The notes under the pieces: generated by a model
What the model was told of the DNA's origin: nothing
The model's input: the letters and a program-made list of their open reading frames with translations, nothing else
Database searches by the model: none
Shown here: piece by piece, positions 14,707 to 55,325 of the stretch
How positions within the stretch are numbered: position 1 is the stretch's first letter
Layout: every line of letters begins with the position of its first letter
Position numbers and translations under genes: made by a program
Assembly (NCBI GenBank): GCA_030704615.1
Contig: CM060733.1
Span: 27,342,001-27,406,000, forward strand
DNA length: 64,000 bases
Source of the DNA: Takakia lepidozioides
Taxonomy: Eukaryota > Plantae > Bryophyta
Reading direction: 5' to 3'

Positions 14707-14847
14707 TAGAGAGTGCTTTAATATGCTGAGTTCTTGGAGAAATGGAGGGCCGCGACAAGGAGAGTTGATGAATACCGTCTTGGATTCCCAATGTCACAGC
14801 TTCAAGTGTCGACCAATCTGTAACAATGGGTTGCCCGAGGGGTGCAG

Positions 14848-17258
14848 GCAGCGACAAAGATATTGGCACGGCAGCTAATACGTTTACGTCAGCAGATCGC
14901 CAAGCTGCAGGGTAGTCATGCCCAGATGCGCGGTGTGGCCACTCATACACAGGTGTGCACAGAGAAGAGAGCACATGGGCAATTTCTCCTTATGGAGCTA
15001 TTTAACACATCTCGTTTCACCCCTGAGTATGAAGTCTCACTTGAAGACAGATGCTCTTTCAGAAATGGGGTCTTCTTAAGGGTTTCAGATGTTCATTGCA
15101 AAAGTCACTCACCCGCAAGGTATAACCTGGACGAAGAGAACAATTTTTTGACAAGCTAAAAGTCCAGCAGTCTACTTATTGCGATGTTGTGAAGTGTTGC
15201 TTTCTTTCTGTCCTAAAGGGCGGGGACATGCATTGGAACACAGGCTATGTATGCAAACACAGCAGTGGCAGGCGCCATGAAAGGGGCCACCAAGGCTATG
15301 TCATCCATGAACAAGGTATAGTGTTCTTTAGATCCAACTTACCATGTGACACACCGTAACTACTGCATGACTGTTCAAATGTAGTCCATTTCTATGGTGT
15401 TGCATTGTTTCCACCTAGCCAATATGGGCGGAATGGCATTAAATGATGAACTTTGATTAAGGACAGTCAGATTTGGGTTACAAATTATTTTGTGAGCTGC
15501 ATTATTTGGCTATGCCTCTTGCCTTTATGTCCAATAATCTCCAGTAACGAATGCATAGAACATGTTACAGAGCCAACAGCAGAGGGAAAATGGATGAAAA
15601 GTTATGTGTGATGGACTAATGTTGAACATATTTGGAAACTGAACAGCAAATGGAACCAGCAAAGCAGGCCAGAGTGATGCAAGAGTTCCAACGACAGTCT
15701 GCTCAAATGGACATGACGGTTAGTAGACACTGGCGTTGTTTCCCTTTTCTTAGAGCACACTGGTACATTTCGGTGAATTGATGGTAGTAATGTCTTTGGC
15801 TGTATTTGGCAATGTGATTAACTGACATGCAAGGAATGCTTATTACGAATATCAAGGAAGAAAGATCCATAAAATATTGGACGCAATTTGCGGGAGCCAG
15901 AGCAGAGCAGATAACTTCCTGATGTAATGTTCAGTGTGTCGCATTTGTTAGTATTGTATCAAGTGTGGTTGCGACCCCTCACAGACAGAGATGATGTCGG
16001 ACTCCATTGATGATGCGTTGGACAATGAGGAGGCAGAGGAAGAGACGGAGGAGCTCACCAACCAGGTTCTTCTGTTGTCCATGACATACCGTACAGATTC
16101 TGTAGATGTTGAAGAACTGTCAGCTGCATTCAGATCTCACTTTCATGTTTTCTTCATGTTATTCAGCACCAGAAAAGAAAGTCTTTACTGTTTCTGAGGC
16201 ACATTGTCCTGAAGTCTCTCTCCTTCCCCATGGTCCCCATTAGTTCTTTGGTGGTAGGTTCTGCGTTATCTTAGGATTGTTCCACCTTACAGTGTGGGAT
16301 GCATGACCCTAGTTTGACATGTGCAACTGTCAATGCAGGTGCTTGATGAGATTGGAATTGACATTGCAGCTCAGGTGAGGAAGCATAGGGCCTTTTGTGG
16401 TTGTTGTTTCCAGGATGAAGAACAATTCCCAATCTTGGTAGTAGTTGACAGTTAGAACGGCTTATGTTTCAGGTTGCATATTTGAAGTAGCATGTGAGCG
16501 CATTCCTTTGATTTAGAGGGTGAGATGAATGCCAGCAGACCTCATTTGGGTGTGATTGATTGTGCAAGACCAGGGGTACTTAGTCAAGGAATTTTCTTAT
16601 GCTGCAGTTTAATTGTACACAGCACAAAGTATTTGTAGAGATTTGAGAGTGTTGTCTTCAATGCACGGATACTGAAATAGCTGGAACACATACATCAAAT
16701 CATCCACAGTAGAAGTGTGATGTATGTGTGTGTAGAAGTGTGATGTAAGTCGCTGATAATGAGAATTTTCAGAAGGTGCACAAGGTCTACGAACCATTAC
16801 AAGGAGAAGACTAACCTTAATGGTTTTTCTGGTGTGTGCACAGTTGTCATCAGCACCAAAGGGCAAGCTTGCTGGCAAGGCAAGGGCTCAAGATGCTGGA
16901 AGGTATCCTTCTCCAATATATGGAAAACCATGAGATACCCTGAAGATGGATATCATCTATTGCTGTGTGAGTGCCATTTGTTTCATCGATTACCTTAAGT
17001 TATCAGTTTCCTTGTAGGAAGGCTATGGCACCAGGCGGAGTCATATGAGTACTCTACCTCTCTTGAGGCCTCACTTTTCTGTTCTCTTTACTCTTTTCTC
17101 TTTCCCCTTATCCCAAGCTCTGTGAGCTTCCCATGGACACTATGAAGTTCCCTACTTTCTTTCGCTGTTGCAGTGAGCTGATCTTGTGGCGTGTGTGGGT
17201 CCACAGCTCAAATGTGGATGATCTGGAGCAAAGATTGGCATCATTGCGCAATATTTGA
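14848..17258 (+). CDS. VPS2: Vacuolar protein sorting 2 (ESCRT-III, Snf7 family; VPS2.2/2.3-like), 5' exons not found
   Basis: GT-AG exons 14848-14952, 15244-15315, 15647-15718, 15985-16065, 16339-16374, 16844-16902 and 17207-17258 splice in frame: ATKILARQLIRLRQQI...EFQRQSAQMDMTTEMMSDSIDD...VLDEIGIDIAAQLSSAPKG...DDLEQRLASLRNI*. Confidence 0.9.
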
Positions 17259-18278: not shown

Positions 18279-18563
18279 TGATACGCACCTAGCTCGACAG
18301 ACTTTGGCTCTATCCTACACGCCCCTGCAGACCGGATGGTAACTTACCCTGTGACATCTATACAACACCAAGAGCCTCAAGAAAGACGAGCTAGCGAGTT
18401 CCTCGCCCAGACATTACAACGAAGTGACATAATCGCAAACGCGCAGCTAATCACTGTCGATCATGTAGGCCTGTGCGGCTCTTTCTTTCGCAAGTTATCT
18501 CGACAAGATCTCTACGTTCTTTCTCCCTCCACGCAACTTCTCTCAGGCCCTTGCCAGACATCA
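18279..18563 (+). mobile_element. Possible 3' LTR remnant of another retrotransposon
   Basis: TGAT...ATCA inverted termini preceded by polypurine AAGGGGGAG. No partner LTR or TSD seen. Confidence 0.3.
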
Positions 18564-18659
18564 TATTAAGGTAATAGGGTTGAAGCCCCCATCGTGGTGC
18601 ATGCCCCAAATGTGGTGCACCCGTGTACCCCTATGTAGCACCCATTTTTTAAAGGTGTC

Positions 18660-20163
18660 AGGGTATCTTAACAAACATTTGAAGCATCAAGAGTCTTGTC
18701 GGAGGCTTTATCATAGTTGGAGAAATGAATCCGCCATGATGGGAAATGAATTTCTTTGCATCATCCATGATAAAATGGATCACTGAAAGACGGCTCTTCC
18801 ACGTCTACAAACCACAAACAAGGTGATATCAGGATTGGGTCAGCTTCCAATTTCCTTGACTTGGATGGTAACTCATGGACACGGAGATGGAGCATATGCC
18901 CAGTACTCGGTCGATTTGTGGCCTAGAGATCCGAATTTCACTATTGGTTCTGTTGCAAGATGTCTCCGCCAACTTGAGAAACCTACTTGCAAAGAATCAA
19001 GGAATATTTTTGACCATCCATTCCAAAATGATTTTTTTGAGCAATTAATGTGGGGAAAGTCCAGATGCATAGATGCGTTGAAGCCATTACATCCAAGAGC
19101 CCAAAAGGGACCGCGGCCATTGCCTCGGAGATTATATTTGCAAATGGATAATTGTATGAAAGGCAACAAGAATAGGTGGATGTTGGCATTTTTTTCTTTG
19201 CTCACAGCAAAGGGTGTATTCGAAGAAATTCAATTGGGATTTATGAAGGTTGGTCATATGCACGAAGATATAGATGGATTTTTCAGCTATCTTTCAAAAC
19301 AATTGAAATAGAACAGCACTTATGTCCTCTCAGATTTAATGAGACATTTCATGGTTTTTTAGGAGTTGCAGTTTATTCCACAAATCATTCAAGAAGTTCC
19401 TGACTTCAAGGAGTTTGTACATGATCATATTATTGATGGAAAAGAGGCTCTTGTTGGAGCTACTGATATACATGTTTTTCAGTTTTACACGGATTCAGAA
19501 AATTGGCCTGTCATGCAATACAAGAAATTGGCCTGTCATGCAAACCGATTCTGATTGGCTTCCAAAACAAGGTGCAGTTAAAATGTGGAAAACTCTTGAC
19601 GATGGATCTCCTTCACTCCTCGTGGGTGAGCCCAAGTAAGTGCCCATGAGACCAATTTGGGGAGACAACGAAGATGCGGTGCAGAAGCAATCTATCATCA
19701 AATCCGGACTAAAAAAGTATCTGGAGTTTTGGAGAAAGGGAATGAATATTGATGAGCACTATGGAACTGTCATGAAAAAGTATGATCAATACTAGACTAA
19801 TATTCTGGAGGAGCTAGAGCTTCCACTTGAGGACCCAAAAGATACTGGTCTTCTAGAAGGATTTTGGCCCTCTACAAAATGGCGGGAAAGCCACATGAGA
19901 GATGGATTTAATGCTCACTATGACGAATCAAATGATCATGAAGTTGAGGAAATTGTTCCTTATTGTGAGCCAAGGTGTGATCGTCCAAAAGAAGGTCTAA
20001 ATCCGTACAAAGACATTGAAAAAGGATTTTTTATCCTTGTTCGCCTTCATGATCCTAATACATATCCAGTTTGGTTGGGAATGGCATCATCCGATGTAGT
20101 TCGTGATAGAAGGAATATCAATTACAAAAAGGTCTTTGTTGAGTGGTGGAGACCAAAGAAGGG
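18660..20163 (+). pseudogene. DUF7869/Sola-like transposase pseudogene, N-terminal part
   Basis: IIHDKMDH, LPRRLYLQMDNCMKGNKN, FMKVGHMHEDIDGFFS motifs with several stops and frameshifts. Ends VEWWRPKKG at the insertion point. Confidence 0.8.
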
Positions 20164-20248
20164 TGTCGTGCGCATACATATCGCTACACAACTACATCGC
20201 TGTCCAAACCACACCACACATATATGCACAATAAAGTAGTCTACCACA
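20164..20248 (-). repeat. Split repeat A, terminal copy (85 bp)
   Basis: Identical by eye to 20604-20688 (TGTCGTGCGC...CTACCACA). Confidence 0.95.
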
Positions 20249-20249
20249 A

Positions 20250-20688
20250 TGATAACCAAACTAGATAAGGACACACACTCTCAACACAAGAAATATGCAA
20301 TCCCTCAACATCTCTTTAAGATATAGTCGAGCCAGGGGCACCCCAAGCTATGGGGACCACCCCACAACAACCTACACTCCCATCATAAGCACACTCAGAT
20401 CTGAAGAATGCAGGAGCTCGGTCGCGCAGGCTCAACTCGAGAGAGATGAGCTGCGCGACTGCCGCTCTCGTGAAGATAAGACGGACCAGGTGTCAAACTA
20501 AACTTGACACCTGATTTAACACTTGACCTAAATCCAAGTGTTAAATACAAATAACTAGTTTTATGCTAGCTGTTTTCACACTGTGCTTATTTAACTTGAC
20601 AGCTGTCGTGCGCATACATATCGCTACACAACTACATCGCTGTCCAAACCACACCACACATATATGCACAATAAAGTAGTCTACCACA
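20250..20688 (-). repeat. Complete 3' LTR (B + GC + A, 439 bp)
   Basis: Sense strand TGTGGTAG...GGTTATCA, preceded by a G-rich tract. 20250-20601 matches 32282-32638 and 20604-20688 matches 20164-20248. Confidence 0.9.
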
Positions 20689-20700
20689 ATCGCCCCCCTA
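20689..20700 (-). promoter_or_regulatory. Polypurine tract (PPT)-like plus-strand primer site
   Basis: Sense TAGGGGGGCGAT directly abuts the TG of the 3' LTR. Confidence 0.6.
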
Positions 20701-20947
20701 GCTGGTGGATAGGTCCCTCTACCTCCAGATAGCTACAAGATGTAATAGCCACAGCCGTACTAAGTCCTCTATCACTGTCCCTATTGTACTCAAACTCTAT
20801 AGACCAAGAGGCCGGGTACAAGAGTAGCCCCATCGTTAGTCGCCGTCTTGCAATCTGTGAACTTGAGCCAGGACTCGTGTGTTCAAGGTCTCCTAGTAGC
20901 TGGGCCTTGCGTTTCTTGTTAGCCTTCCATGGTTGTATCCACTCCCA

Positions 20948-21175
20948 CTATCCAATGCAATGTGGACATAACCAATCCCCATCTGGAACCATCTCAAGAG
21001 GTGGAGTCAAGCATCCCATATGCCAACCTCTAGAGCATCGATCACACACCAGCATGGTGGCTGCCCCTTTAGCAGACCCACACAACATGCACCTCAAACC
21101 TGCAGATACCACTGCCAGGTTTGGGTCAATCCTGCCATCGACATTCGGAAGGTGACATGGCGCACAATTACGCAC
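20948..21175 (-). CDS. PHD finger at the integrase C-terminus
   Basis: CMLC...MLVCDRCSRGWHMGCLTPPLEMVPDGDWLCPHC is a C4HC3 PHD consensus. Confidence 0.93.
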   Translation of the reverse strand: MRNCAPCHLPNVDGRIDPNLAVVSAGLRCMLCGSAKGAATMLVCDRCSRGWHMGCLTPPLEMVPDGDWLCPHCIG

Positions 21176-22327
21176 ATGGTCCTTCCAAGTATGCCATCCC
21201 GACCCTCCAAGACCAAGACGCCTGAGGGCAAGACCTCTCGAACCCTCAAAATAACACGTCCTGCAGTCACATCCAGGGTCGTAGGAGCAGTCTGCTGCAG
21301 ATAGACATAGTCACCAGGGTTGAATCTCCGAACCCCAGGACGATAGCCCCCACCACGTATGGTAGCATACCTCAACGTATCACGGTGTTGTGCAATGGCA
21401 AGGTTCTCGAAAGCCATGGGCATGACTCTCTTGAACAACTCTGCACGCTGCTCACATGCACGTGCCCACACGTCCGGATCGTCAAGGTTAAGAACTTAGC
21501 AGCTTCTCTGCGAATGGATGTAGGCAAATCCGGCTCTCGGCCAAAGAGAAGAAAGTATGGTGAGAAGAGGCAAGTGATGATGCTTGCTGAACCTGTAGCC
21601 CATGGCTAACCAGGGTAACTGAAGGTCCCAATCTCCTAGGTGTCCCTTCTGCAAGCCATACTTGCGCAAACCCCTCTTTACTGTCTGAACAACTCTCTCT
21701 GCCAAGCCATCGGCCTCAGGATGATCCCGAGAAGTGGTGCGGTGGTCTATCAAGGCCTTGTCACACAAAGCCTGAAACTCCCCAAGAACTCTCTCCCTTG
21801 GTCCGTGAGTACCTCAGCTGGAGCACCGAATCGGCTAGCACACAATCCAGGAATGCATACGCAGCTCCCTCACTAGCCTTATCAGGCAATGGAACCAATT
21901 CAATCCACTTGGAGAAGTGCTCCACCATCACCAACACGTACTTGTTGTGGCGCATGGTCAGTGGCAACGGCCCTGCGAAGTCAAGACTCCACCTGTAGCC
22001 CAATCCCATGATCGGAAGAGGGTGCAATTGTGGAGTAGGGGCGTTGAATGAAGCACGCACCCTGTCACACACCATGCACCTAGCCACAAATTGTTGCACC
22101 TCTGTGTGCATACCACGCCACCAATACTGCCCCTGCAGTAGACTATGAGTGCGTCGCACCCCAAAATGCCCCAACTCCTCATGGGCATGCCGCACTAACC
22201 GTGCCCGCTGTGTTGGGTGAGGCACAATCCTCACTCGACCATCCTCCCACACTCGGAGCAGGTGTGTCCCCTCCCACCTGAACCTCTTGGCTCGTTGTAG
22301 GATCCGATCCCTCTCCTTGGCAGTCAT
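21094..22327 (-). CDS. Integrase (HHCC zinc domain + DDE core), frameshifted
   Basis: HEELGH...CMVC, then WSLDFAG, VLTDQG (shifted frame) and DGLAERVVQTVK, across ORFs 21761-22327, 21496-21768 and 21094-21471. Confidence 0.92.
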
Positions 22328-22557
22328 AGTGGCTGCCGTGTCTCCCTGCGGAGGTAGTCCAACACAACTGAATCCTCATGTATATCTTTGGCGCCACCTG
22401 CTCATTGCTGGCCTCAGGGTCCTCAGACACTTGATCTACAGTCATCCCTGTTGTAGGTCCAACCTGGCCTTCCGCTGCCAAGATACACAGAAATGCAGAT
22501 GCATGCCATCCGGGCACCATCTCCTCGTCCGTCTCACCATGCCACCGAGCTCCAGTG

Positions 22558-23913
22558 TCATCCTGCTGGCTCGTGCATGGATTGCGACTCAACCCATCTG
22601 CATTCGATTGACCAAACCCGGTCGATGCACCACCTGAAAGTCATACTCTTGAAGGATGAGGCCCACCGTGCAAGCTTCCCCGTAAGCTTGTCTGACTCCA
22701 TCAACCACTTGAGTGGTTGGTGATCCGTGACAAGGGTGAAGAGATTGCCGTATAGATAGCACCTGAAGTGTGCCACGGCCCACACTGCAGCTAAGCATTC
22801 TCCCTCATATGAGCTATACTTAGACTCTGCAGCATTGTTCGAGCGGCTAGCATAAGCCACTACGAACTCTCTTCCCTCATCATCCACCTGTGTGAGCACC
22901 GCTCCAAGCCCCAGCATGCTCCAATCTGTATGCAGCTGAAAAGGACGCCCCCTGATAGGTCGTCTCAAGATGGGCGCCGAGGTCAACCTCGCCTTGAGCT
23001 CTTGAAAAGCTTGTTCTTGCTCATCTTCCCACTGCCACTCCTGGTCCACCTTGGTCAGCTTGGTTAGAGCCTTTGCAATGGCACTAAATCCCTTAACAAA
23101 CCGTCTGTAATAGTTTGCTAACCCCATGAAAGCTCGAACTCGGCTCACATCCGTGGGGCGTGGAACCTGTGCAATGGACTCTACCTTAGTCTGCTGTACC
23201 CCCAATCCTCCAGGATATATCATGTGACCCAGATACTCAATCTGGTTGTGGAAAAACTTGCACTTGCCCGGATGTAACTTCAATCCGTGCGTCCTCAAGC
23301 GCTCAAATACCCCCTGAAGGTGTCTCTCATGCTCCTCCACCGTAGCACTAAAGATGATGATGTCATCTATGTAGCACCGAGCAAACTCCACCCCTGCTAG
23401 AATCCTGTCCATGACTCTTTGAAACTCAGCGGGAGCGTTTTTAAGCCCAAATGGTAAGAACCGCCACTGGTATAGGCAATCCTTCCCGTGCTCATTGATC
23501 CCCCAGAATGCCGTCTTTTGCTTATCCGCCTCCTTGATCGGCAACTGGTGATATCCGGATCGTAAATCCAACGTGCTAAAGACCTTGGAATGCCCAATGG
23601 CATCAAAGATCTCCTCTGGTGTTGGCATGGCATACCTATCGGACTTGGTCTGACGATTTACAGGCCGGTAATCACCGCACATACGTCTCTCCGTCCAATT
23701 GCCATAGACATCCTTCTTAGCTGGCATCACTGTGGCTGAAGCATACTCTCCACCAGAGAGCTCCACCAAACCTGCCTCCCAGAGATCTTGAGTCCTCATC
23801 TGAATCAAAGACCTCTCCATGTCACTGTATCTATAGGGTCTCCGAAAGATTGGCGTGTCAGTGGCCAACTCAATACGGATCTCTTGACCCTTCAGTGCTC
23901 CCAAGTCCTTCAA
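22558..23913 (-). CDS. Ty3/gypsy reverse transcriptase + RNase H
   Basis: RMCGDYRPVN, FSTLDLRSGYHQ, LPFGLKNAP, YIDDI, YLGH; RNase H LHTDWS, YEGECLAAVWA, VTDHQPL. Confidence 0.97.
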   Translation of the reverse strand: MKDLGALKGQEIRIELATDTPIFRRPYRYSDMERSLIQMRTQDLWEAGLVELSGGEYASATVMPAKKDVYGNWTERRMCGDYRPVNRQTKSDRYAMPTPEEIFDAIGHSKVFSTLDLRSGYHQLPIKEADKQKTAFWGINEHGKDCLYQWRFLPFGLKNAPAEFQRVMDRILAGVEFARCYIDDIIIFSATVEEHERHLQGVFERLRTHGLKLHPGKCKFFHNQIEYLGHMIYPGGLGVQQTKVESIAQVPRPTDVSRVRAFMGLANYYRRFVKGFSAIAKALTKLTKVDQEWQWEDEQEQAFQELKARLTSAPILRRPIRGRPFQLHTDWSMLGLGAVLTQVDDEGREFVVAYASRSNNAAESKYSSYEGECLAAVWAVAHFRCYLYGNLFTLVTDHQPLKWLMESDKLTGKLARWASSFKSMTFRWCIDRVWSIECRWVESQSMHEPAG

Positions 23914-24369
23914 ACTGAAGGCAAAGCAATTCCTGTAAGCCCTCAGGAACCGCCGTATACGTCGTCTCTCTCCTCCGGTGACAATGGGTCCAATGTCAGG
24001 CTCCCAATTGTCCTCCGTAACTGCAACCTTAAGTCCAGTGGGCTTAGAGGTAGAGGACGCGTCCCGTGGTTGCTATGCTGCAACCTCTTGAGCAGTACCC
24101 CCTTCCTGCTCAGTCAATGACAAGGCCTCATCCTGCCCCATCATCTCATCATTGAGAACCTCCTCATCCCGAGAAGAATCCCCAACCTCATCCATCACAG
24201 CTGCCTTCGCTGCCAACTCCCTGAACCTCGAGCACCTCCCACATGTGCCATGGATGTCTACACCTCGTGGTCCTCACCGGCTCGCCCCCACTCGCTGCCT
24301 GTACCGTCTCGGTAGGCAGAGAGACCGTCAAGGGAAGTGCACTCCGCACTCTACGTTGCTCAGCCATAG

Positions 24370-25330
24370 CCAAGCTGACAATCCAGGTCAAGCAATTGAG
24401 ATCCATTGCTTGCCCCAACACCTGACGACGTGATGCCTCAGAAAGAGAAGGCACCGCCGTGTGGTCCCAGTGGAAAACCCCATAGCCCGCTCTCGCTCGT
24501 CGGCATTAGGCTCCACTAACTGCTGCAACTGAGCATCCCACAGGAGGCCAGGTCCACCATCCCGAAAAGCATGGGATCCTGGGAAGCTGAGCAGTGTAGG
24601 TAATGCTGCTCGTGGTTGACCCCTGTTGACCACTGCCAAAGGCGAACGGTCATCGTGTCTCACACGTTGAGACTGCCTCCCTGTGTCCAAAATGCCATCC
24701 ACGGTGAGGTGTGCTGGCCGCTGCACCCCATCAAATGCACGCTTGAGCAGTGCGGGTGGCATCAAGTTAGTCCACCATAGTCGTGGACGATGAGCCCGTG
24801 ACCCCACTGCAGCTGCATCCAGCAACACTGCTGACCCAAGCCACGACCGGACTTGATGCACACTGGCCATCACCCTGGCCCGAGAATCACCCATCAGTGG
24901 CACATTCTCCAAGATGTATGCCGGAGATACAGCCTGATGAAGCTGCAAGTGGCGCAAAATCCGCACCATCTCCCAAAACAGACCCGTCCTCGAGTCTCGC
25001 AATCCATTGCCATGCCCGGCTGATGAATGCCCTTGGCAGGGCCAACCTGCCACTACCAGATCAATGGAGCCAACCTGCTCCAAATCTGCGCCCCCAACGA
25101 AATGTCTGCTGGCAAGGCTTGTTGGTATCCACGAACTGCAGACACGGCAACAAGTCAGGGTACTGCTGTACCAACTGAGCACATGGCGCAGTGAGACGCG
25201 TCGTGCAGTCTCATCCCTCTCCACATACAGGTAACGCCTTACCCGTACACCTGCCTGTAGCACAGCAGCCAATCCGGTGCTGATCCCGCCAAACAAGTCC
25301 AGAAGGCAAATGCCTTCATCCGGGCCGCTG
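24370..25330 (-). CDS. C5 cytosine DNA methyltransferase domain (DNMT3-like) within Pol
   Basis: Motif I LLDLFGGISTG, II YVERD, IV DLVVAGWPCQG, VI ILENV, VIII RAHRPRLWW, IX ERERAMGF, X RRQVLGQAMD (after a frameshift). Confidence 0.93.
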
Positions 25331-25699
25331 CCACACAAGAGGTGTGGTGTCCAATGGCGACAACTGAGGTGGCCCTGGTGCAATCACCGCACTCTCCTCC
25401 TCTCCTGACGGTACAAAAGCTTCTACCCAAGCTTGTTGCACCCGTCCATCAGCAGCTGCTGCAAATCCTTGCTCGTACCCCACAACGGAGTGTGAGCAAC
25501 CATGGCAGGCAACTCCGCCGTACCATGCATGTCATCCTGCTCTGCTGGAGGTGGCACATCCTCTGCATGGGCATTGCCTTCCAGCAACTCTCCAGGCCAA
25601 CTAACTGCAGCTGTGAAAGGCGGCTAGTGTTGGCATCTTGCCCCGCTGGGCAGCTGCAATACCCCCAATGAATGTCACAGGAGCTGTGCACGGCGACCA

Positions 25700-26100
25700 T
25701 CCCTGACTGCCATCCAGGCCTGTAGGATGCTGACTCCTCCCAGAAATCCAGGGTGAAGCCCATGGGGTATAACACTGCCCCACCAACGAGGACATCGTAA
25801 GAGACCGCGTCTGTCACAATGGCCTTGGCTCGCATCACTGAGCCATCTACAGGATGATCCGGCTGCAGTCTAATAGCCAACTGATGCCGTGTCATGCCGC
25901 GAGCCTGCTCTGATCCTCCCAGAGATGTCTGTATCTGGAAAGGACAAGGCTCCATATCCGCCTCCATGAGGCCCAAACCTGCAATAGCAGCTCTGCCCAA
26001 CATCAGTGGCTGAGCTCCGAGTCCAACAAGACCCGCAGTGGCCGGTACTTCTTGCCTGCCGGTCCACTCAAAGTGAAAATGCCTCCCTGGTTGTCTAACA
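25700..26100 (-). CDS. Retroviral-type aspartic protease (frameshifted)
   Basis: LRVLLDSG catalytic motif at ~26030 continuing MLGRAAIAGLGL...YDVLVGGAVL. Confidence 0.8.
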
Positions 26101-26319
26101 AGACAACTCCAGGTGTCACCATGGCGCGCTCAAAGGCTGGCCTAGCTGGCAGCTCCGTCAATCTGGCAGCTGCAGCTTGCCAGGGCGCTGCCGTGGCAGT
26201 CTTGACCCTCAAATCCGAGGATCCCTCTGCCACTACACCTTCCACTAACTCCGCAGAAGATGAAGTGACCTCCCCACTCTCACAGAGTGTTGCTGCTAGT
26301 CTGAACACTGCAGCTGGTC

Positions 26320-28076
26320 TCACCCCGGCGTCGCAATCATGGTTGCCGAGAACAGTGGGGCTTGACACACAGAGGTGGCTGCCCCCAATAACACACCGGC
26401 TGCACTAGCCTTGGTAGCAGGAGTCAATGCTGCACGTGTAGCTCTCCCCAATGGCATAGTAACCTCCGCCTCGGTAACAGTCGGGCGAGAACTAGGTGCC
26501 ATGGATGGCGTCGACACAGTCTCCGCCAATGTGAATGACTGAGGAAGCCTCGCCTGACGGCTTGCCTCCCCACGCTGTGGATCCAATTCCACCTCTGCAC
26601 CTCGTGGCTCAGGAACTCGTGCTGCTCCTCGAGTCACGGCTGCAGCAGACTCCACCTGCTCTAGTGGTAGTGCTGCTCCGCACATAAATCCCATGCCTCC
26701 CATATCTCCTCCCTCAGGAGCAGGAGGTGGACCATCCCGCCTGGGAGCCGGTACCGCCTGAGCTATAGCCATGGCAGCGAGCCTCTGCTCTAGCTGCTGA
26801 AGCCGGTTGGCCATGCCTTGTCAACACCCTGACCTCCGCGTCCTTGGCCATGTTGAGCTTGCCCTTGGCCTGCACCTCGTGCCCGACCACCTCGTCCTCT
26901 CTGGGCTGGTCCACCTCGCCCCCGGCCACCATTGTTCCCTTGGAACTGGCCTGGGCGCAACTCAGGATGCAAGTCATAACACTGGGCATCTCCATGCCCA
27001 TACTTGCCACAATGCCCACACTGCAACTGTGCAGGCTGTGCTTGTGCCGGCCTTCTGCCACTCTCTGGGCAATCTCTCTTGACATGGGGTCCTCCACATG
27101 TCCAACATATCACCCCTGGTTGCTGTTGGCCTGCAAAAGATGCCACGGGCCTCTGCACCTGAGGTCCCCTGTAAGCTCCATGGAACTTGGGCTGGGCAAC
27201 CTTGCCCCCCTGACCACGCTGTTGGGCAGTCCCTTGTGCTGTGGGCTGACAGCTGTGCCCCGTACAGGCATGTCCTTGCCAAATCCAATTGTAACAACTC
27301 GCTCCTCCACCATGTTGAGCTCAATCCGCTCAGCCAGCAGAAACACATCTGCTAATGTGGGTTGGGCTGCTTGTAACAGGGTTGCATCTCGCACCCTTCT
27401 CTTGAGCTCCTTGTCCAGAATTCCATACCAAAACTGGATTGCCTGAGCTTCAGTAACCCCTTGGGTCACACTTATCAAGCGCCTCATACGAGTGTACGCC
27501 TCTCGCAGGCTCTCACTGGGTTTGCGCTGGAAGTCTTGCAAACTTCGCAGCTTCTCTGTCCGTACACCTTGGTAGTTCCTCCGCAACTCCTGGAAGAACT
27601 CCACCACCGGGTTGAATCTAGGCACATGTGTTGTAAGTGGCAGGAGGAGTAGTAGCACCTTTTGAACTGGTACCACCTGCAGAAGTACCAGCACTACTTG
27701 CTCCACTACTAGTGCTGGCAGTGGGAGCTATTGGTACTGATGCAGCTACTGGTCGCGTCGTGCCTCGAGTAATGGAGACGTAGTCAGGTGACCAATACAT
27801 CCTCCACTCCTCAATCTCTGCTTCATGTCCTCGCCTGAACTCGTGGTAATCGTCCATAGGCGGGCCTTCCAAATGCTGGAACAGTCCCTTCCACGCCATG
27901 AATGGGGTGAATAGCTGTGGATTGCGCATCTGCTGCAAATCACACCAGCTGTCGAACTCCTGGATAAAGTCATCCAACTCGATTGTGCCCACAGCTCCAG
28001 AGTACCTACGAGGCCCCTTGGTAGCTCCATACATCTCCTCCATGTCGTCCCACAACAATGGCGAATGAAAGTGCAC
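26320..28076 (-). CDS. Gag (capsid-like domain + two CCHC zinc knuckles), frameshifted
   Basis: LRSLQDFQRKPSESLREAYTRMRRL (Retrotrans_gag MHR-like); CWTCGGPHVKRDC and CGHCGKYGHGDAQC knuckles; RGG-rich tail. Confidence 0.85.
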
Positions 28077-28999
28077 ACCTGTTGATGAAGCCTCCGAGTC
28101 TGTGTCTGACTACAGTATTGAGGGTGGCGGTGAAGGTGGTCTGAACCGAATACCTCGTCTTGTGAACCCACTCTCACTGTACTGCTGTAGCCGTACTCCC
28201 CTCAAAACCCTTGGGTAACTCCGTAATGACACTCACAATGTGCACCTCCTCCACGTGACACTATAAGGCTCTAGTACTAATCTAATAGTGACACGGGTGG
28301 GCACCTGTTGCAGTCTAAGGGTCATATCCCAATGGCTCAGGGCACCTGCACCTGCATCCACCGCAAGAACTCCTATGGTTGGCTGGTCATCAACCCAGCC
28401 TCACCATAGAAGAAACACTGGTGGTCTTGCTGGTCATCACTCCAGCCTCACCACCGACAGCATACTCTAGGATTGACCGGTGATCAAATCCGGCCTAATC
28501 CCTATGAAAGCAAGCGCCCACAAAACCAACATGGCGCACAGTCAAGCATGCAGGTGTTGGGGGGGATCCAAACACAAGAAATCAAAACATCAACACCCCC
28601 ACACCAAAATCCAGCAGCAACGCTGATCCTGCAGAATATCCCAGCCCAAAACCCGGACTGACTGGCCTCCACCAAGAGAGGCTTTGGCAACTACAAGTAC
28701 AAGGTAATGAAAATAGTACAGAGATGGAGGGGAAGAATAGAAGCCCGCCCAAGCAAGATCTAATCCTGATCTATGCTATCAACTTCCAGACTTCTCTCAA
28801 AGTGCCTCGCTCTGCTTGATGGTAAGGTGTAGGAGGTATATCTATGTCCAGAAAAACCTGCCACTAACCTTGTCCCAAGCTACAGTAGCTCGCTCTAACC
28901 AACCCTCCTCCTCTTTCTGCCAGGTAGAGACAAAGCAACACTCTGCTATCTCCCGCTCACTGAACACTAAAGAAAACAAAGGTAGGGTCTGATAGTCTC

Positions 29000-29467
29000 T
29001 CAACTCGAAAGCTTTGAGACGGTTGCGGGTGTCTCATTGCGAATGACTGCATCGCCTTCAAACAGAACAAACTTGTCCTCGCTAATGAACCCCCGCTCGT
29101 GGTTGCCTTGTGCAGAGCGTGTCCGACTGCAACACTGTCTAATTGCACAAACTTGTGCAGCTCCTGCTCCTCTGCTCCAGTACACCACGGCCTTGTGGCT
29201 GAACACCTTGGTCCCCGGGGCTGTCTTTGGCTGTGTTCCAAGCCTAGCTTTCACCCACTTTGGTATTTCACCTACAGCTGCAGAACTGCTGGCTCCAACA
29301 GAGTTCTGACTGTCCAAGGCGATATTGAGGCCCTCAATGCCAACTACAGCAGTCTGTTGTCTACTGCTAATGCCTGACTCCCAGTATGCAATCAACTCGT
29401 CCAACTGTTCTCCACTCAAATCAGTCTGAGTTCCTTGGGAAACATAAATCTGTCCCCTTGTGTGCAC
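29000..29467 (-). CDS. Uncharacterised accessory ORF in the retroelement 5' region
   Basis: 155-aa ORF, same strand as gag/pol, no recognisable motif. Confidence 0.3.
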   Translation of the reverse strand: MHTRGQIYVSQGTQTDLSGEQLDELIAYWESGISSRQQTAVVGIEGLNIALDSQNSVGASSSAAVGEIPKWVKARLGTQPKTAPGTKVFSHKAVVYWSRGAGAAQVCAIRQCCSRTRSAQGNHERGFISEDKFVLFEGDAVIRNETPATVSKLSS

Positions 29468-30236
29468 AGACTAAGAGAAGAGACCTGCCCTTCAATTACG
29501 TCCTCATTTCCCCCAGCCATGCAGGAGTACATCCACCAATTTGTCTCTCATATAGACCAGCACAGGTTCTAGAGACAGGATTGTGGATCTTTCATGGCAC
29601 ACTCACACTCTAAAAATTCCATAGATTTTTAGCAGAGTCCCCAAAACAGAAACCAGGTTTAGATAGGTAGATTTCCCCTTTCTGCAGCTATCCCCCCAAA
29701 AACTGGGTCAAACAGAGTCCATTTGACAAAGATATGATGAATTTGGCTCCAAATCATTCAAATTAGATTAAAAAGGGGTTTTTTTTTTTTAAAAGGTTTT
29801 CAAGTTTTAAAAATTCAAAGTTACACCAAAATATCTGGTAACTGGTTCCCGGTTCCCTAAGTTCTATATGGCATCCTAGGTTCCCTGGCCACGTGCCTGC
29901 TGTTCCCCTCCATTCATTTGAGTTCAACAGCTCACCATGCTTTGGAATCCCAACCGTCTTCTACCACAAACCGTGGTGACGATGGAGTTCGTGAAGCGAT
30001 CCTTCCCAGTGAACCCTCGAGAGACGAGTCCCCTGTGCACTTGATATACACTCTCTTAATAGAGATCAAAATCAGCAAGGAGACACCATTGACGACACCC
30101 AGAGATCAGAGACAAGTACTTGCGCAGTTTGGAGGCCACAGCATCCCCTCTGGACACTGAGCGGGGAATAGCTGCTACACAGCAGCTCAGTCTATCGTCA
30201 GCTCCTATACCTACTAGCTTCCTGCCCCTGCCATAA

Positions 30237-30680
30237 TCAAGAGACAAGTGACACAACACCAGCTGGAAACACCTTTCCTGAATTTTTGTATCGAGAGCCC
30301 ATCACAAACAAGAGAAGCCCTGAAACAGCAACACCGATAGAGGACGCAAGGACAGGGTTCGAGGGCAGGTTCAGATAGACATAATAGAGGATCAGAGCTG
30401 ACCCTCCCCCTGACAGCAAAGACTTGCTGCTCCCAGATTTTGCAAATCCGATCACTCCTCCCAGACCAACAAGGACTGCATACGCCAAGGTCAGCTTCTG
30501 CGACATAGACAGCTTCATCTTTCCGTCACCACTTCCCTCTTCCTGTCCTCCCTCACCACCGTTCCTGTTGCCTCCATTGCCCGACACTTGGGTTACATGC
30601 TCAGCCAGACCTTCAAAAAACCTGGCCCAAAATTCACTGGCTGCTCGGACACTGACATGACCAAACCTCTTTAACTCCAA
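30237..30680 (-). CDS. TMEM14/FAX4-like (fatty acid export) membrane domain captured in the retroelement
   Basis: LSMSQKLTLAYAVLVGLGGVIGFAKSGSSKSLLSGG...PVLASSIG...VMGSRYKNSGKVFPAGVVS closely matches the plant FAX4 Tmemb_14 domain, including the preceding Gly-rich linker. Confidence 0.85.
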   Translation of the reverse strand: MELKRFGHVSVRAASEFWARFFEGLAEHVTQVSGNGGNRNGGEGGQEEGSGDGKMKLSMSQKLTLAYAVLVGLGGVIGFAKSGSSKSLLSGGGSALILYYVYLNLPSNPVLASSIGVAVSGLLLFVMGSRYKNSGKVFPAGVVSLVS

Positions 30681-32265
30681 TCAGCCTGCTGCTGAGTTAC
30701 GATCTCATCACCAAGCAAAATCTATCCCAATGCCCAGTTGAGCTGCCAGTCTCGCATTCACTTTCCCCACCAAGGCAGCTGCAGTACACTGACTGTCTTA
30801 GCTCCCTCCATGACAACCTCCCGCATTTGGGCAAGTTCAGCTTCACGGACCTCCCAGCGACTTAGCAGCTGCTTCAGGTCATGGTCCTAGCTAGCGCATG
30901 CTGGGCTGCAACCAGTTGCAGATCCTTATCGTGTAGAAACCCCTTCACTGCTCTCTTTCCATCTCCTGATGCCATGCTCCATCCTCCAGCCACTTCACTT
31001 GTTTCAGGCACCCAGGTCCCTATGGGCAGGTCACATGCTCCTGTGCCAGCCAGAACAGTGACATTCGACCCCTTCGTCTTCAGGAACAAGCTGGTAGCTT
31101 CCTTGATGTCATCAGTTTCCTGGACACTTAAACGGCAGTATGGTCGCCACCTCTAATTGAGGCAGTAGTGGTGACGAAAGGAGAAGAGAAACACAGGGAA
31201 AGAGCGAGGAAAAATAAGGGCGGAGAACTGCTCATGTCAAAAGGTCAAAGCCAAGAGGTCGAAACATTGTGCGAAGGGGGACTGTGTTTCTGCTGCCCTC
31301 TCCCACTTCAGCGCAACATTCAGCGTCCAGAGAGTGAAGTCCCTCAAAATTTAGAGAGTGAACCCACCGGCAACAGGAGTGCTCTCAAGCGGACATTGAG
31401 CGCCCTCCACTGACTCAGTTGAGTGTGCAAACCTTTCTGCTCATGCAGTTCCAGCAGTCAATACTCACTCCTAGTGATGATGATGTTCATGCCCTAGAAG
31501 ACCACCCTCTCCTATCACCTTCAACTGAAAGACTGGGCTGCAGACTGAGCATTCATACTGTTTGTCCTTCTCCAGCTTGAACCATGTCACATCATGCTCA
31601 TCCTCACAACACCTCCTGAGCACCCAACTATCCGCTCATCATAGTGTGACTCCACAATTGCAGGGGCATCCTTGGTTCCAAAGGGACCACGAGGCGGATC
31701 CAGATCAAAGCGCTTCCCACCCGAGCGCTCCGCTTCCAACTCCTCCAGCTCAACTCCTGTTGCAATTCCAAAATCGCCCGAGCTGCCTCCTGCACTTGCC
31801 AAATCACGACTACGATGCAAACCACCGCGCATATGAGAGACCCCGATGTTCTGATTGCTCCGCTTGCAGTTGCGGGTTACACAGCAATGTCGGTGGAGGC
31901 ACACATGGTACACGCCTGGATGCAACCAACCGTGAGAGCCTGCATCCAGCCGTCCTCAACATAGCGCCCCACTCCCTCTGGGCCTTGCCATCACACCACC
32001 AGCTGCCATCGATATATCCTCCGCAGCCGGCGACGCCCTTACAGTGGAAGCACACCTCGCCAATGCCAACAGAAATATGGGCAGACCACCATTACTCTCT
32101 CTTCTACCACACCATTGCGACTGGAGATGTGAGACGAACTCAAGCTAGAGCCGTTCTATGCTCCTTGCTTGAGCTGCGTACAAGACCATGACCATCTATA
32201 TTATAATAGTGCTTTAAAAAAAACAAAAACATCATATCTAGCTTAGCACTGGAAAACTAGATAGT

Positions 32266-32281
32266 GCTCATCTCTCTCGAG
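32266..32281 (-). promoter_or_regulatory. Self-priming primer binding site
   Basis: The 16 nt immediately inside the 5' LTR are the exact reverse complement of LTR positions 32473-32488. There is no TGG tRNA-type PBS. Confidence 0.85.
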
Positions 32282-32638
32282 TGATAACCAAACTAGATAA
32301 GGACACACACTCTCAACACAAGAAATATGCAATCCCTCAACATCACTCTTTAAGATAATAGTCGAGCCAGGGGCACCCCAAGCTATGGGGACTCCACCCC
32401 ACAACAACCTACACTCCCATCATAAGCACACTCAGATCTGAAGAATGCAGGAGCTCGGTCGCGTAGGCTCAACTCGAGAGAGATGAGCTGCGCGACTGCC
32501 GCTCTCGTGAAGATAAGACGGACCAGGTGTCAAACTAAACTTGACACCTGATTTAACACTTGACCTAAATCCAAGTGTTAAATACAAATAACTAGTTTTA
32601 TGCTAGCTGTTTTCACACTGTGCTTATTTAACTTGACA
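32282..32638 (-). repeat. 5' LTR, part B only (lacks the 85-bp A segment and GC)
   Basis: Matches 20250-20601 apart from a few small indels and about one substitution. Confidence 0.95.
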
Positions 32639-32642
32639 AGGG

Positions 32643-32916
32643 AGGTAATCCATTTGATTTGGAAAGGTACATGGATTGTTGGACAAAGACTTGGGAATTC
32701 AACCCCGAAGATCCTCCACAGTGGATCCATGTTGACACCGTTGTTTGGACCATGCCCGCGAGAAAGAATATTGCGAGGTCAAGCACAAAGCGGATAAGTG
32801 TCAAAGAGGCAGAGAAAACGAAAGCTAATATCGATAAAGCGAATCTCCAATGTGACGCAGAAACAAGTTCTTTGCGTAATTTCGAACAATCTGAAGACAT
32901 TAACCATGATGTATGA
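32643..32916 (+). pseudogene. DUF7869/Sola-like transposase, C-terminal part
   Basis: Joins 20163 in frame after TSD removal: RPKKG|GNPFDLERYMDCWTKTWEFNP. Homologous to 5840-6076. Confidence 0.85.
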
Positions 32917-34447
32917 TATGTTAACAATGACATATTGACGTCAATTCAATCAAAGTTTGATTTTAATAATAGAATTCGTGTCACCAATTTTTTTTTTATC
33001 AGATTCAGTAGTTGTATGTTTATTATTATTTTTATCTTGATGTTGTTTTTGCTACAATGTGATAGTGATTTGAAGTGTATGACATATCATTTTGTACTTT
33101 GGAAATCTTCCTCGGGTGTTCATTAATTATTGAAACAACCAGAAAATATTGTTTTAGGCATTATATGTATATTAATTGTAGGAATTATGATAGGTGAACT
33201 CAACATATCATTATAGTGGGCATGATAAGATGGACATGTTTGTATTTAACGGGCGTCATTATTAGAAATATAGGTAAGACTTCTACCAAGTGGATAAGTT
33301 ATATATATACGTGTATGTTGCGAATTATTTTTGTCAAGAACATACATTGGTGTAACTAATTAATTGTAGGAACGACAAGAAAACATTGTATTGGGCATTA
33401 GGTGGTTAGTGTGTGCATACGGTCTGAGCATTGGTAAATATGTATTGACAATATCTATCAATAATACACTAATCAATTGTATGAGTTACCAACATGATTG
33501 CATTATAATGGACACTATGAGGTGGATGTCATGTTTGTATGGATGGGATGTCATTATCAGAAATTTAGGCATTGATATGGTGGATATAATGTACTAATAT
33601 GCTAATAAGTGTGTGTTGACAATTATATGTATGGATTTATGTGTTAAATGTGTGTTGACAATTATCTTTTGAAGGTTTACTAATGTATATTAAAAAAAAA
33701 ATTGTTTTTACATCAGGGTTTAGGGTTTCTAGGGTATTGGTACTATGATTAGGGCATGTAACTTATTTCATGAATAGAAATGTTTGTTCCTTTTGAAGCT
33801 TACTAATATGTTACCTTAAATCTATTTAAATTTCTCTTCACATCATATATAGGGTTTAGGGTTTCTAGGATAGTATTTTCAAGTGTACTATTATTAGTGC
33901 ACTCTAAATAGAATGAGAAATTGAAAAGCTTACTAATATTTACTCAAATCTGTTTTTATTCTTATTACATTATAGTTAGAGTTATGTTGACACATGATGT
34001 CAATTCTGCATAAAAGATTTCATGAAATTAACATCAATGAATATTCTATATTTTTCAACGTGAATCACTTTGATATATTGGACTATGATATCATGCAAAT
34101 ATTATAGAGTCCGGCGGTATGTCTTTCGTCAAGAGTCTTGACTTTTCTCTCTCCTTGTGTGAAGGGCTTTCTAGGGGACCCATTTATCAAAGTTGAACAT
34201 GTGAATTAAATTGACTTCAGTGACTAAACTAAATAGCATTATCATCAAATTTGTTCCAAAGATTTCTCATTTGTATTATAAACTTTCAAGAATTAGAATT
34301 TTTAATAGTTCAACTTCAATTTCGAAGTGAAATAATTAAATATAATTATTTCTCATGTTATTTGTTAAATTAAATTAAATTGTCACGTATACTAAGTTTG
34401 ATCTGGAATTAACGAAAAAAATCCGGAATTAGTTAAAATTGAGTTAC

Positions 34448-35980
34448 TGCATGCTTCTGAACCAATATGGAGGGATTTGAACTGAGGGATGTAAATGTAT
34501 TCACCTACACAAGAGTTTCTCAATGCAAAACTCTTCTCTGACAGTGTTTTTGTTAAAAAACTTGCATGTTTTGAACCAGTATGGGGGGACATGGACTGAG
34601 GGATTTGAATTGCTTTGCCATAAGAAAAAAAAGTTTCTCAACACGAAACTCTCATCTGACAATGTTTTTGTTCAAAAACCTGCATGTTTTGAACCAATAT
34701 GGAGGGACGTGGACTGAGAGATTTGAATTGCTTCGCCAAAACAAAAAAAGTTTCTCAACACAAAACTCTTCTCGGATAGTGTTTTTGTTCAAAAACCTGC
34801 ATGCTTTGAACCAATATGGAGGGACGTGGACTGAGAGATTCAAATTGCTTCATCATAACAAAACTGTTTCTCAACACGAAACTCTTCTCGGACAATGTTT
34901 TTGTTCAAAAATCTGTATGCCAATATCGAAGGGAATGGACTGAGGGATTTGAATTGTTTCGTCATACAAAATAGTTTCTTAACACGAAACTCTTCTCTGA
35001 CAGTGTTCTTGTTCAAAAACCTACATGTTTTTGAACCAATATGGAGGGACATGGACTGAGAGATTTGAATTACTTTGCCATAACAAAAGAGTTTCTCAAC
35101 ACGAAACTTTTTTGTGACAGTGTATTTGTTTGAAAACCTACATGCTTTTGAACCAATATCGAGGGACGTGGACTGAGATATTTGAATTGTTTCGCCATAA
35201 CAAAATAGTTTCTCAACACAAAACTCTTCTGGGACAGTGTGTTTGTTCAAAAACTTGCATGCTTTTGAAGCAATATGGAGAGACGTTGACTGAGAGATTT
35301 GAATTGCTTCGCCATAACAAAAGAGTTTATCAACACGAAGCTCTTCTCGGACAGTGTTTTTGTTCAAAAAACCTGCATGCTTTTGAACCAATATGGAGGG
35401 ACATGGACTGGGAGATTTGAATTCTTTCGCTATAACAAAAGAGTTTATCAACACGAAACTCTTATGTGACAATGTATTTGTTAAAAAACCTCCATGTTTT
35501 CGAACAAATATGGAGGGATATGGACTGAGGGATTTAAACTCTTTGCCGTGACAAAAGAGTCTCTCAACACAAAACTCTGTCTGACATGGGTTTTGTTCAA
35601 AAATCTGCATCATTTCTTCAACACGAAACTCTTGTCTGAATTTTATTTTTGGATGGATATGAATTGAGGGATTTGAACTGCTTGACTGTAACAAAAGAGT
35701 ATTTCAACACGAAACTCTTGTCTGACAATGTATTTGTTCAAAAATTAGTATGCTTTGAGACGATATAGAGGGATATGAATCGAGGGACTTGAAGTGTTTT
35801 CCTGTAACAAAATAGTTTCTCAACAAGAAACTCATGTATGACATTGTTCTTATTCAAAAACTTACATGCTGTTGAACCAATATTGAGAGATATCAACTGA
35901 GGGATTTGAACTATTTTGTCGTGACAAAAGAGTTTTTCAACACGAAAGTCTTGTCTGACAGTGTATTTGTTAAAAGACAT
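34448..35980. repeat. Tandem array, ~13 diverged copies of a ~117-118-bp unit
   Basis: GAACCAATATGGAGGGAC..GACTGAG..GTTTCTCAACACGAAACTC recurs at ~34459, 34573, 34691, 34808, 35033, 35150, 35267, 35385, 35502, 35757 and 35874. Confidence 0.92.
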
Positions 35981-55175: not shown

Positions 55176-55295
55176 AGGGTGCAGCACCGGGACTTCCCGG
55201 GAGGTCACCCATCCCAGTACTATTCCGGCCCAAAGGCGCTTAACTTCAGAGTTCTGATGGGATCTGGTGTAGTAGCCTTGGTATGACCGCACCAC
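55176..55295 (-). rRNA. 5S: 5S rRNA (first copy of the array)
   Basis: GTGGTGCGGTCATACCAAGGCTACTACACCAGATCCCATCAGAACTCTGAAGTTAAGCG...GGGTGACCTCCCGGGAAGTCCCGGTGCTGCACCC followed by a T4 and then T8 Pol III terminator. Confidence 0.98.
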
Positions 55296-55319
55296 GACAT
55301 CCACGCTTCTGGCTTGCTA

Positions 55320-55325
55320 CTTATA
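55320..55325 (-). promoter_or_regulatory. TATA-like element upstream of 5S (in every unit)
   Basis: TATAAG at about -30 to -25 from the 5S start. Confidence 0.6.

Follow-up and report, generated by a model that had tools for sequence, protein, structure and literature searches.

A Ty3/Gypsy retrotransposon carrying a DNMT3-like cytosine methyltransferase (DNMT) was located on the minus strand of the window (the whole stretch of Takakia lepidozioides DNA that was analysed, 64,000 nucleotides in length). Both ends and all repeats of the element could be placed, and its features, in window coordinates, are as follows.

20160-20163, plus strand: target-site duplication AGGG at the 3' end of the element
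20164-32638, minus strand: the whole Ty3/Gypsy element, 12,475 bp, with ends TGTC...GACA
20164-20249, minus strand: repeat B2, 3' terminal, 86 bp, directly abutting the end of A2
20250-20601, minus strand: repeat A2, 352 bp
20598-20607: palindrome GACA-GC-TGTC at the B1/A2 junction, consisting of both element ends plus 2 nt; proposed integrase attachment site
20604-20689, minus strand: repeat B1, 86 bp, identical to B2
20690-20699, minus strand: polypurine tract, directly before B1
20957-21091, minus strand: PHD finger at the integrase C-terminus (PF00628, E = 2e-11)
21190-22330, minus strand: DDE integrase with H2C2 zinc finger (PF17921, E = 9e-17; PF00665, E = 3e-5)
22636-23934, minus strand: reverse transcriptase (RT) and RNase H (PF00078, E = 9e-33; PF17917/PF17919, E = 1e-33), with YIDD at 23373-23362
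24073-24075, minus strand: conserved in-frame TAG, then CAA CCA (CARYYA-type readthrough context), between DNMT and RT
24390-25302, minus strand: non-permuted DNMT3-like C5 cytosine methyltransferase (motifs, PF00145 and structure matches)
25701-26063, minus strand: aspartic protease, its active-site motif divided by a frame break near 26018
26979-28043, minus strand: gag (PF03732, weak, E = 7e-4), with two zinc knuckles at 27107-27069 and 27020-26979
30237-31152, minus strand, sense to the element: captured host TMEM14/FAX-like coding sequence (PF03647, E = 2e-16, ORF 30680-30237)
31471-32091, minus strand, sense to the element: captured host COX5B-like coding sequence (PF01215, E = 2e-8 and 5e-6 in two adjacent frames)
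32266-32281, minus strand: primer-binding site, directly after A1 and complementary to A
32282-32638, minus strand: repeat A1, 5' terminal, 357 bp, differing from A2 by 1 substitution and 3 small indels
32473-32488, minus strand: self-primer segment in A1, 16 nt, complementary to the primer-binding site; predicted 5' end of the transcript
32639-32642, plus strand: target-site duplication AGGG at the 5' end of the element

Contigs in runs X3 (n = 2) and X5 (n = 1), which derive from different studies, were found to connect position 20158 to 32638 and so to omit 12,479 bases, equal to the 12,475 of the element plus the 4 of one duplication; what they represent may be either an allele without the element or a paralogous copy of the sequence that flanks it. 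That sequence is a DUF7869-domain coding region (18300-20163 and 32643-32916, plus strand; PF25273, E = 3.5e-30), probably another transposon, which is split by the element and whose reading frames resume beyond the far side of the insertion. The insertion itself is young, as shown by the identity of B1 with B2 and the near-identity of A1 with A2. The order gag, protease, RT, RNase H and DDE integrase is that of Ty3/Gypsy elements, as are the TG...CA ends, the 4-bp target duplication (4-6 bp in this class), the primer-binding site and the polypurine tract. Two complete LTRs around the coding region were not found; the repeats follow the pattern A...B-A-B, with a complete B-GC-A unit at the 3' end only. 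No tyrosine recombinase family was detected among the ORFs scanned in the window, the element having a DDE integrase and a 4-bp duplication instead, and the integrase C-terminus has a PHD finger in place of the chromodomain that marks Tcn1/Tf1 chromoviruses. The single duplication, the size-matched empty site and the same layout in relatives led us to reject the alternative of two elements, with different LTRs, nested one in the other. No match was obtained when the RT was used as a query against viral contigs. A 156-amino acid frame at 29470-29000 had no Pfam, Atlas or locus match and was not counted as a gene.

Elsewhere in the window a hAT-family transposase (PF05699) is encoded by an open frame of 848 amino acids at 10111-12657 (plus strand), and a fragment of an unrelated Ty3 integrase (PF17921) lies at 14258-14989 (minus strand) beside exons which we take to be those of an ESCRT-III VPS2-type gene. 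A tandem array of approximately 117-bp units at 34447-35990 contains a 287-amino acid open frame on the minus strand, for which Pfam returned sub-threshold matches only. Searches with a VQ gene gave weak matches, those with names being from Sphagnum, and FtsH pointed to 'Streptophyta'. A land-plant origin of the window is supported, and a bryophyte one is likely from the DNMT tree described below.

The gag segments were 74-78% identical to those of the annotated Marchantia polymorpha copy Mp4g09160. In the integrase, the D, D and E motifs were located at 21991-21968, 21812-21795 and 21705-21685, and the nearest solved structures to its PHD finger included CHD4, PHF12, KDM5A/B, ATXR5, BAZ2 and UHRF1; a PHD finger match was present in 25 loci. 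The PHD fingers of KDM5, BAZ2, UHRF1 and CHD4 are readers of unmethylated histone H3 tails. The protease was found upstream of the methyltransferase, as an earlier note made from the sequence had stated, but its LLDSG motif does not lie in a single frame and has to be read across the frame break near 26018.

The same note had described C5 methyltransferase motifs in non-permuted order between protease and RT, and every motif that it named was found on the minus strand: LDLFGGISTG (25302-25273), YLYVE (25233-25219), AGWPCQG (25050-25030), YILENV (24918-24901), RAHRPRLWW (24798-24772), ERERAMGF (24498-24475) and RRQVLGQAMD (24430-24401), numbered C5 methyltransferase motifs I, II, IV, VI, VIII, IX and X in the note. 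The HMMER check that it proposed gave a match to PF00145 at E = 4.9e-13 (49.7 bits, cut-off 22). When solved structures were searched, DNMT3A was the best match (E = 5e-9) and DNMT3B the next, ahead of a plant DRM-type entry (1e-4), M.HhaI (7e-4) and DRM2 (0.02), in agreement with the proposed resemblance to DNMT3. A relative from Calypogeia (P0002), with an open DNMT 64% identical to the window ORF, gave a predicted model (pLDDT 77) for which the 38 structure matches listed were exclusively DNMT3A/B/C. Phage C5 methyltransferases matched weakly (31% identity, E = 4e-9). The fold modelled for the domain is of DNMT3 type and not of DNMT2 type; its assignment to DNMT3 is based on how the structures ranked and on the tree published for the Klebsormidium homologues, the DNMT tree of the present analysis being one without host DNMT3, DRM or MET1 sequences. 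The domain is intronless and sits within a polyprotein, as in the elements known as Gypsy-DNMT3, and its SAM-binding, PC, ENV and RxR residues are all retained.

As assembled, the DNMT of the window has 4 frameshifts (near 25178, 25143, 25087 and 24461) and 0 in-frame stops. Alignment from gag to DNMT with a Marchantia protein (P0123; 1,259 residues aligned) revealed 14 frameshifts and no in-frame stop, and alignment from DNMT to PHD with a more distant protein (P0170) revealed 15 frameshifts and 4 stops, 1 of which is the conserved TAG. Older metagenome copies show the reverse pattern, with many stops and few frameshifts. A tandem array of 5S rDNA occupies 55000-64000 of the window (13 genes, unit of approximately 706 bp), in which several gene copies are 1-4 nt short; over 11 units, indel events (35) outnumber substitutions (27). 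Contigs from the same organism also vary in length at several of the break positions of the element. Because of the indels in the 5S array, these length differences and the contrast with older copies, it is likely that the frameshifts of the window copy are in part assembly errors.

Between the primer-binding site and gag, the COX5B-like and TMEM14/FAX-like segments lie in tandem without evident introns. The former is frameshifted as assembled, and an A-run is present near 29790-29779. Both sequences were likely captured from mRNA. The summed depth over 29774-32108 was far below that of gag-pol, so that the captured segment is likely confined to few copies.

The position of the conserved TAG bears on how the methyltransferase would be made. 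An in-frame stop was present at the same place 3' of the DNMT in 45 of 47 rows (31 TAG, 14 TAA; 46 loci plus the window, representing approximately 37 distinct sequences), the two exceptions being one deletion and one row with the motif in a shifted frame. The codon after the stop is invariably CAA or CAG. The exact CARYYA context occurs in 6/47 rows from three lineages, and most moss-type copies have CAA CCC ATG after the stop (25 with TAG and 13 with TAA among the 47 rows). UAG-CARYYA is the TMV-type readthrough signal of plant viruses, for which 6-32% readthrough is given for plant reporters in PMC4132726 and PMC2754532. Among 68 long proteins, 38 contained protease and DNMT but neither RT nor integrase, ending there because of the conserved stop. 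Such a stop is not universal, since the Klebsormidium proteins P0167 and P0221 are single open frames.

On this evidence the DNMT is, at the level of sequence, the last domain of a Gag-protease-DNMT frame and is not inside the Pol frame. The description of the enzyme as embedded in Pol is therefore borne out for domain order but not for the reading frame: DNMT and RT share one frame, yet are parted by the stop and do not form the single ORF described for Gypsy-DNMT3 elements. We infer that termination at the stop would yield Gag-protease-DNMT in abundance and that readthrough would yield RT-RNase H-integrase-PHD; for moss-type copies, reinitiation at the nearby ATG is an alternative to readthrough. 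The suggestion that the enzyme is packaged with Pol is to be amended in view of the position of the stop, which would have DNMT made together with Gag and not with Pol only.

The repeats occur in the order A1, internal region, polypurine tract, B1, GC, A2, B2, a DIRS-like split layout combined with Gypsy domains, which is also a property of Gypsy-DNMT3 elements. With B directly following the polypurine tract and A directly preceding the primer-binding site, the unit B-GC-A behaves as a single LTR, and the whole pattern can be read from its sequence as one LTR opened at the conserved GACA-GC-TGTC palindrome. The 45 nt before B are 82-91% identical in moss-type loci. B-A-B 3' ends were found in the relatives L042, L046, L052 (the same as L060), L063 and L066, and the joint between A and B is flush in the window and in 4/5 of these relatives, L066 being more diverged at the joint. 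The palindrome recurs in the distant locus L030 and, with one change, in L022; the longer form CGACA-G(C/T)-TGTCA has been conserved between lineages that have reached saturation at synonymous sites. Wherever both ends of an element were available a 4-bp duplication was seen, exact in L024, L037, L046, L052, L055 and L070 and with one mismatch in L032 and L042.

By-eye, post hoc counts gave an A-B-A structure at 0/20 distinct 5' ends and a B-A-B structure at 6/14 3' ends (Fisher P = 0.002). The A-internal-B forms (8 3' ends) were not taken as proof of integration from a 1-LTR circle: L037 (13369-13482, B only) and L063 (7605-8171, B-A-B) have the same 3' flank in different assemblies, which indicates that 3' repeats can collapse, either by recombination or in assembly. 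When contigs were compared with the 3' repeats, only two long records began beside other sequence, at 20164 and 20604.

The primer-binding site can pair with A, at position 151, over 16 nt, against a maximum of 9 nt in 2000 shuffles, and in the folded RNA the self-primer segment of A was paired with the primer-binding site. In L038 and in L045/L046, 16 different letters pair with position 164 of A, so that the putative 16-nt self-priming signal covaries between lineages. Besides the window the 16-nt match is confined to 3 loci (2 insertions), other, older copies of A having no more than 10 nt. Self-priming is known from Tf1/Sushi and Tcn1 elements (PMC6317226), and the sequence evidence assigns the same type of primer-binding site to the present element.

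Besides 64 longer proteins, the DNMT search returned 230 that were similar in length, of which 120 were listed. Named DNMT-bearing records among the matches listed came from Marchantia polymorpha, M. paleacea, Riccia, Calypogeia, Sphagnum and Klebsormidium, and the RT search contributed further named relatives from Closterium and Haematococcus. Annotated M. polymorpha copies include Mp8g17980 and Mp2g26090 in addition to Mp4g09160. Among 80 metagenome loci, some of which are one insertion in several assemblies, other element domains were present beside the DNMT in 70, and in 38 the DNMT was preceded by protease and followed by RT; of the remaining 10, 6 were short or broken and 4 were weak matches to methyltransferases that seem to be unrelated. 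Summed depth over the DNMT, which is not equivalent to copy number, was similar to that over RT and integrase. The methyltransferase is thus present in other copies of the family (the 38 loci and the named genomes) and has no target duplication of its own, so that two of the observations which the earlier note had offered as grounds for abandoning its reading were not made. Its statement that such enzymes are not standard in land-plant Ty3 elements is to be qualified: the domain is no one-off but recurs within one lineage of bryophyte Ty3 elements, to which copies in the reference genome of Marchantia also belong.

A DNMT tree from a quick search placed the window in one group with every named sequence from liverworts and mosses (SH-aLRT 99), and Klebsormidium fell outside that group. 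A first RT tree was set aside, its 'other RT' rows being mostly broken family members that provided no true outgroup. A further RT tree (quick search, midpoint root, unnamed outgroups) contained a clade of 31 rows (SH-aLRT 99) comprising the window, Marchantia, moss-type loci, Klebsormidium, Closterium and Haematococcus; the RT thus falls in one clade with that of the Klebsormidium element, as expected of a Gypsy-DNMT3 element. Within this clade the DNMT takes one of two positions, ahead of RT or between RNase H and integrase. The latter arrangement, with a homologous DNMT, is that of a Haematococcus sister group (P0161, P0168, P0313, P0349 and P0385), which indicates that the DNMT was relocated within the lineage. 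A small PHD-bearing subgroup without DNMT (e.g. P0350) also belongs to the clade, which implies that the DNMT is dispensable for mobility of the lineage. In a distant Ty3 polyprotein (P0363), a Dam adenine methyltransferase lies between protease and RT and a PHD finger ahead of integrase, a parallel layout with a different enzyme.

Three intact loci (L021, L022 and L030) form a second lineage with 46-49% DNMT identity, in which DNMT and RT are fully open; they have the exact CARYYA context and the same palindrome, and the lineage is possibly active. Among them dN/dS of the DNMT was 0.10-0.12, in line with the purifying selection (Ka/Ks <0.2) reported for Gypsy-DNMT3, and between lineages it was 0.06-0.24 where dS was measurable. 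Comparison of the window DNMT with four moss-type loci gave pN of 0.18-0.21 and pS of 0.74-0.78. Among mostly decayed moss-type copies the median dN/dS was 0.54 for DNMT versus 0.37 for RT (302 pairs). The catalytic cysteine and the glutamate of ENV were each retained in 42/44 rows. The dN/dS comparison which the earlier note had called for thus points to purifying selection with retention of the catalytic residues. That the DNMT is a passenger, captured or secondarily inserted and decaying neutrally, might be suggested by the captured host sequences upstream of gag in the window copy and by its many frameshifts; this reading is extremely improbable and is refuted by the same protease-DNMT-RT position, shared by 38 loci and by named genomes that range from algae to mosses, by the selection just described and by a depth like that of RT and unlike that of the low-depth COX5B/TMEM14 segment.

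KnitGypsy-Dnmt3, found in Klebsormidium nitens (de Mendoza 2018, PMC5890265), is an element of the same kind, so the present one is not categorically new. The two share an intronless, non-permuted DNMT3-like domain in a Gypsy element under purifying selection and a DIRS-like repeat layout (figure 4c legend). The Klebsormidium protein KFL_009030040 has 46% identity to the window DNMT (E = 3e-41), the order protease-DNMT-RT-integrase and a place in the same RT clade with 99% support, and the link to algal retrotransposon-borne methyltransferases drawn in the earlier note is upheld by this homology and the shared clade. The algal element is described as having one Pol ORF (PMC5890265), whereas the present one has a land-plant host and a stop before RT. 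Acquisition is presented in PMC5890265 as specific to the K. nitens lineage; here, relatives were found in Haematococcus, Closterium, liverworts and mosses. The text of that article makes no mention of self-priming, an attachment palindrome or a 4-bp duplication where consulted, and the term 'PHD' had 0 matches in its main text and 3 supplements.

With the self-priming Ty3 chromoviruses Tf1/Sushi and plant Tcn1, as they are presented in PMC6317226, the element shares a primer-binding site that complements the LTR's own transcribed part, the Ty3 domain order and a chromatin-reader domain at the integrase C-terminus; those elements differ in having a chromodomain and flanking LTRs, against a PHD finger, a DNMT and split LTRs here. 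The RT trees of this analysis were ones without any named Tcn1 RT.

Ngaro, PAT and TOC1 are retrotransposons with split direct repeats, and tyrosine-recombinase elements are usually without target duplication. According to PMC5890265 and a 2026 preprint (bioRxiv 10.64898/2026.05.21.726589), DIRS-type elements, including SymbioDIRS-Dnmt3 and DAM-bearing elements, share with the present one the repeat order A1-ORFs-B1-A2-B2, a methyltransferase in the coding region and a proposed circular intermediate. They differ in using a tyrosine recombinase, whereas the element has a DDE integrase, a 4-bp duplication, TG...CA ends and a Ty3-type RT, and keeps its polypurine tract and primer-binding site. 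The element's enzyme agrees in fold, in the order of its motifs and in its catalytic residues with animal DNMT3A/B and moss PpDNMT3b (PMC6453930); its identity to DNMT3A is approximately 22%, and it is without PWWP, ADD or plant DUF domain and is intronless, polyprotein-borne and multicopy. In the passages concerned, the same preprint and a 2025 paper cite 'streptophytes (Gypsy-DNMT3)', with land plants unnamed. No description of a land-plant Gypsy-DNMT3 was found in the literature covered, which included PMC11982613, PMC10952607 and PMC6453930 in the parts available and from which subscription journals were mostly absent. What is added here is the conserved stop after the DNMT, the A-internal-B-A-B repeats, the covarying 16-nt self-priming signal and the integrase PHD finger.

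The explanation that we favour, with moderate confidence, is that the DNMT methylates the element's own new cDNA in the particle, that RT and integrase-PHD are produced by readthrough, and that end-joined circular cDNA is opened at the palindrome. Readthrough of the conserved stop would set DNMT at Gag-like abundance, well above RT and integrase, and Tf1-like self-priming from repeat A would start reverse transcription. With B-GC-A acting as an ordinary LTR, reverse transcription would yield B-GC-A at both cDNA ends; the two blunt ends could then join, and integrase could open the palindrome in the 5'-derived LTR, cutting after CA on both strands to leave CA-3' ends with 2-nt overhangs. The integrases of foamy virus and HIV are described as cleaving palindromic 2-LTR junctions (PMC1180852, PMC4372172). 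Methylation of the double-stranded intermediate may protect the cDNA or set the chromatin state at the insertion, and the PHD finger might steer integration via histone H3 tails. The most likely substrate would be the element's own double-stranded cDNA because an enzyme packaged with Gag meets that DNA first; methylation of cDNA has been proposed for SymbioDIRS-Dnmt3, which methylated CG in yeast (PMC5890265). Against this explanation, the Klebsormidium enzyme produced no methylation in yeast (PMC5890265), CpG depletion in the element (0.51) is similar to that of neighbouring host sequence (0.41-0.63), and the directional bias by which one of two palindromes is opened is not accounted for by the circle model.

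An action mainly on host chromatin, at the insertion neighbourhood or at other copies, damping transposition or hiding insertions, was also weighed; the abundance expected of a first-frame product, which would exceed the need of one cDNA per particle, would agree with it. Here protease-released DNMT would enter the nucleus or ride the integration complex, with the integrase PHD finger in the role of the animal ADD. The likeness of that finger to those of KDM5, BAZ2, UHRF1 and CHD4 and the de novo methylation of heterochromatin by the moss host DNMT3b (as given in PMC6453930) are consistent with such an action, which nevertheless appears unlikely: the PHD finger sits on the integrase and not on the DNMT, which has no attached targeting domain, and the Klebsormidium methylome is reported as conventional despite such elements (PMC5890265). 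A role other than methylation of DNA at C5, such as nucleic-acid binding in the particle or methylation of the RNA genome, would suit the predicted Gag-level expression, which fits a structural role, and PMC5890265 reports no methylation of yeast DNA by the Klebsormidium enzyme and raises RNA methylation for LINE-borne DNMTs. The authors held the yeast result to be inconclusive, however, and human DNMT3B was also inactive in the same assay (PMC5890265); this, with the retained SAM-binding, PC, ENV and RxR residues and the DNMT3-type, not DNMT2-type, fold, makes such a role improbable.

The directional opening (0/20 5' ends against 6/14 3' ends) would be explained if DNMT and integrase formed a restriction-modification-like pair, in which DNMT marks CG/CHG at the palindrome and integrase opens one copy and spares the retained one; the LTRs are completed on opposite strands, so that an early mark would fall on opposite strands. 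Conservation of CGACA-G(C/T)-TGTCA across lineages would agree with this, as would the co-occurrence of split repeats and methyltransferases in DIRS-type elements (PMC5890265, bioRxiv 10.64898/2026.05.21.726589). We consider such a pair decidedly unlikely, as it is pure inference and as nearness to a DNA end (86-115 bp versus approximately 350 bp) could explain the choice without methylation. It is likewise quite unlikely, in our estimate, that these parts together define an old green-plant Ty3 lineage with its attachment site inside the LTR, circle opening and a Gag-abundant DNMT3 before a leaky stop serving as a restriction-modification-like switch.

Why a transposon should carry an enzyme that normally silences transposons has been an open question since 2018, in part because the known carriers were dinoflagellates and Klebsormidium. 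Through the Marchantia polymorpha copies the question becomes testable in a genetic model with methylation mutants, and much more enzyme is to be expected from a frame that stops after the DNMT than from a domain carried in Pol. The repeat anatomy suggests how a DDE integrase might take a circle-type intermediate as its regular substrate, a route concrete enough to be tested. Software that searches for two flanking LTRs is likely to miss or misname such elements, and the DNMT domains that they carry can lead to overestimates of the number of host methyltransferases in bryophyte genomes.
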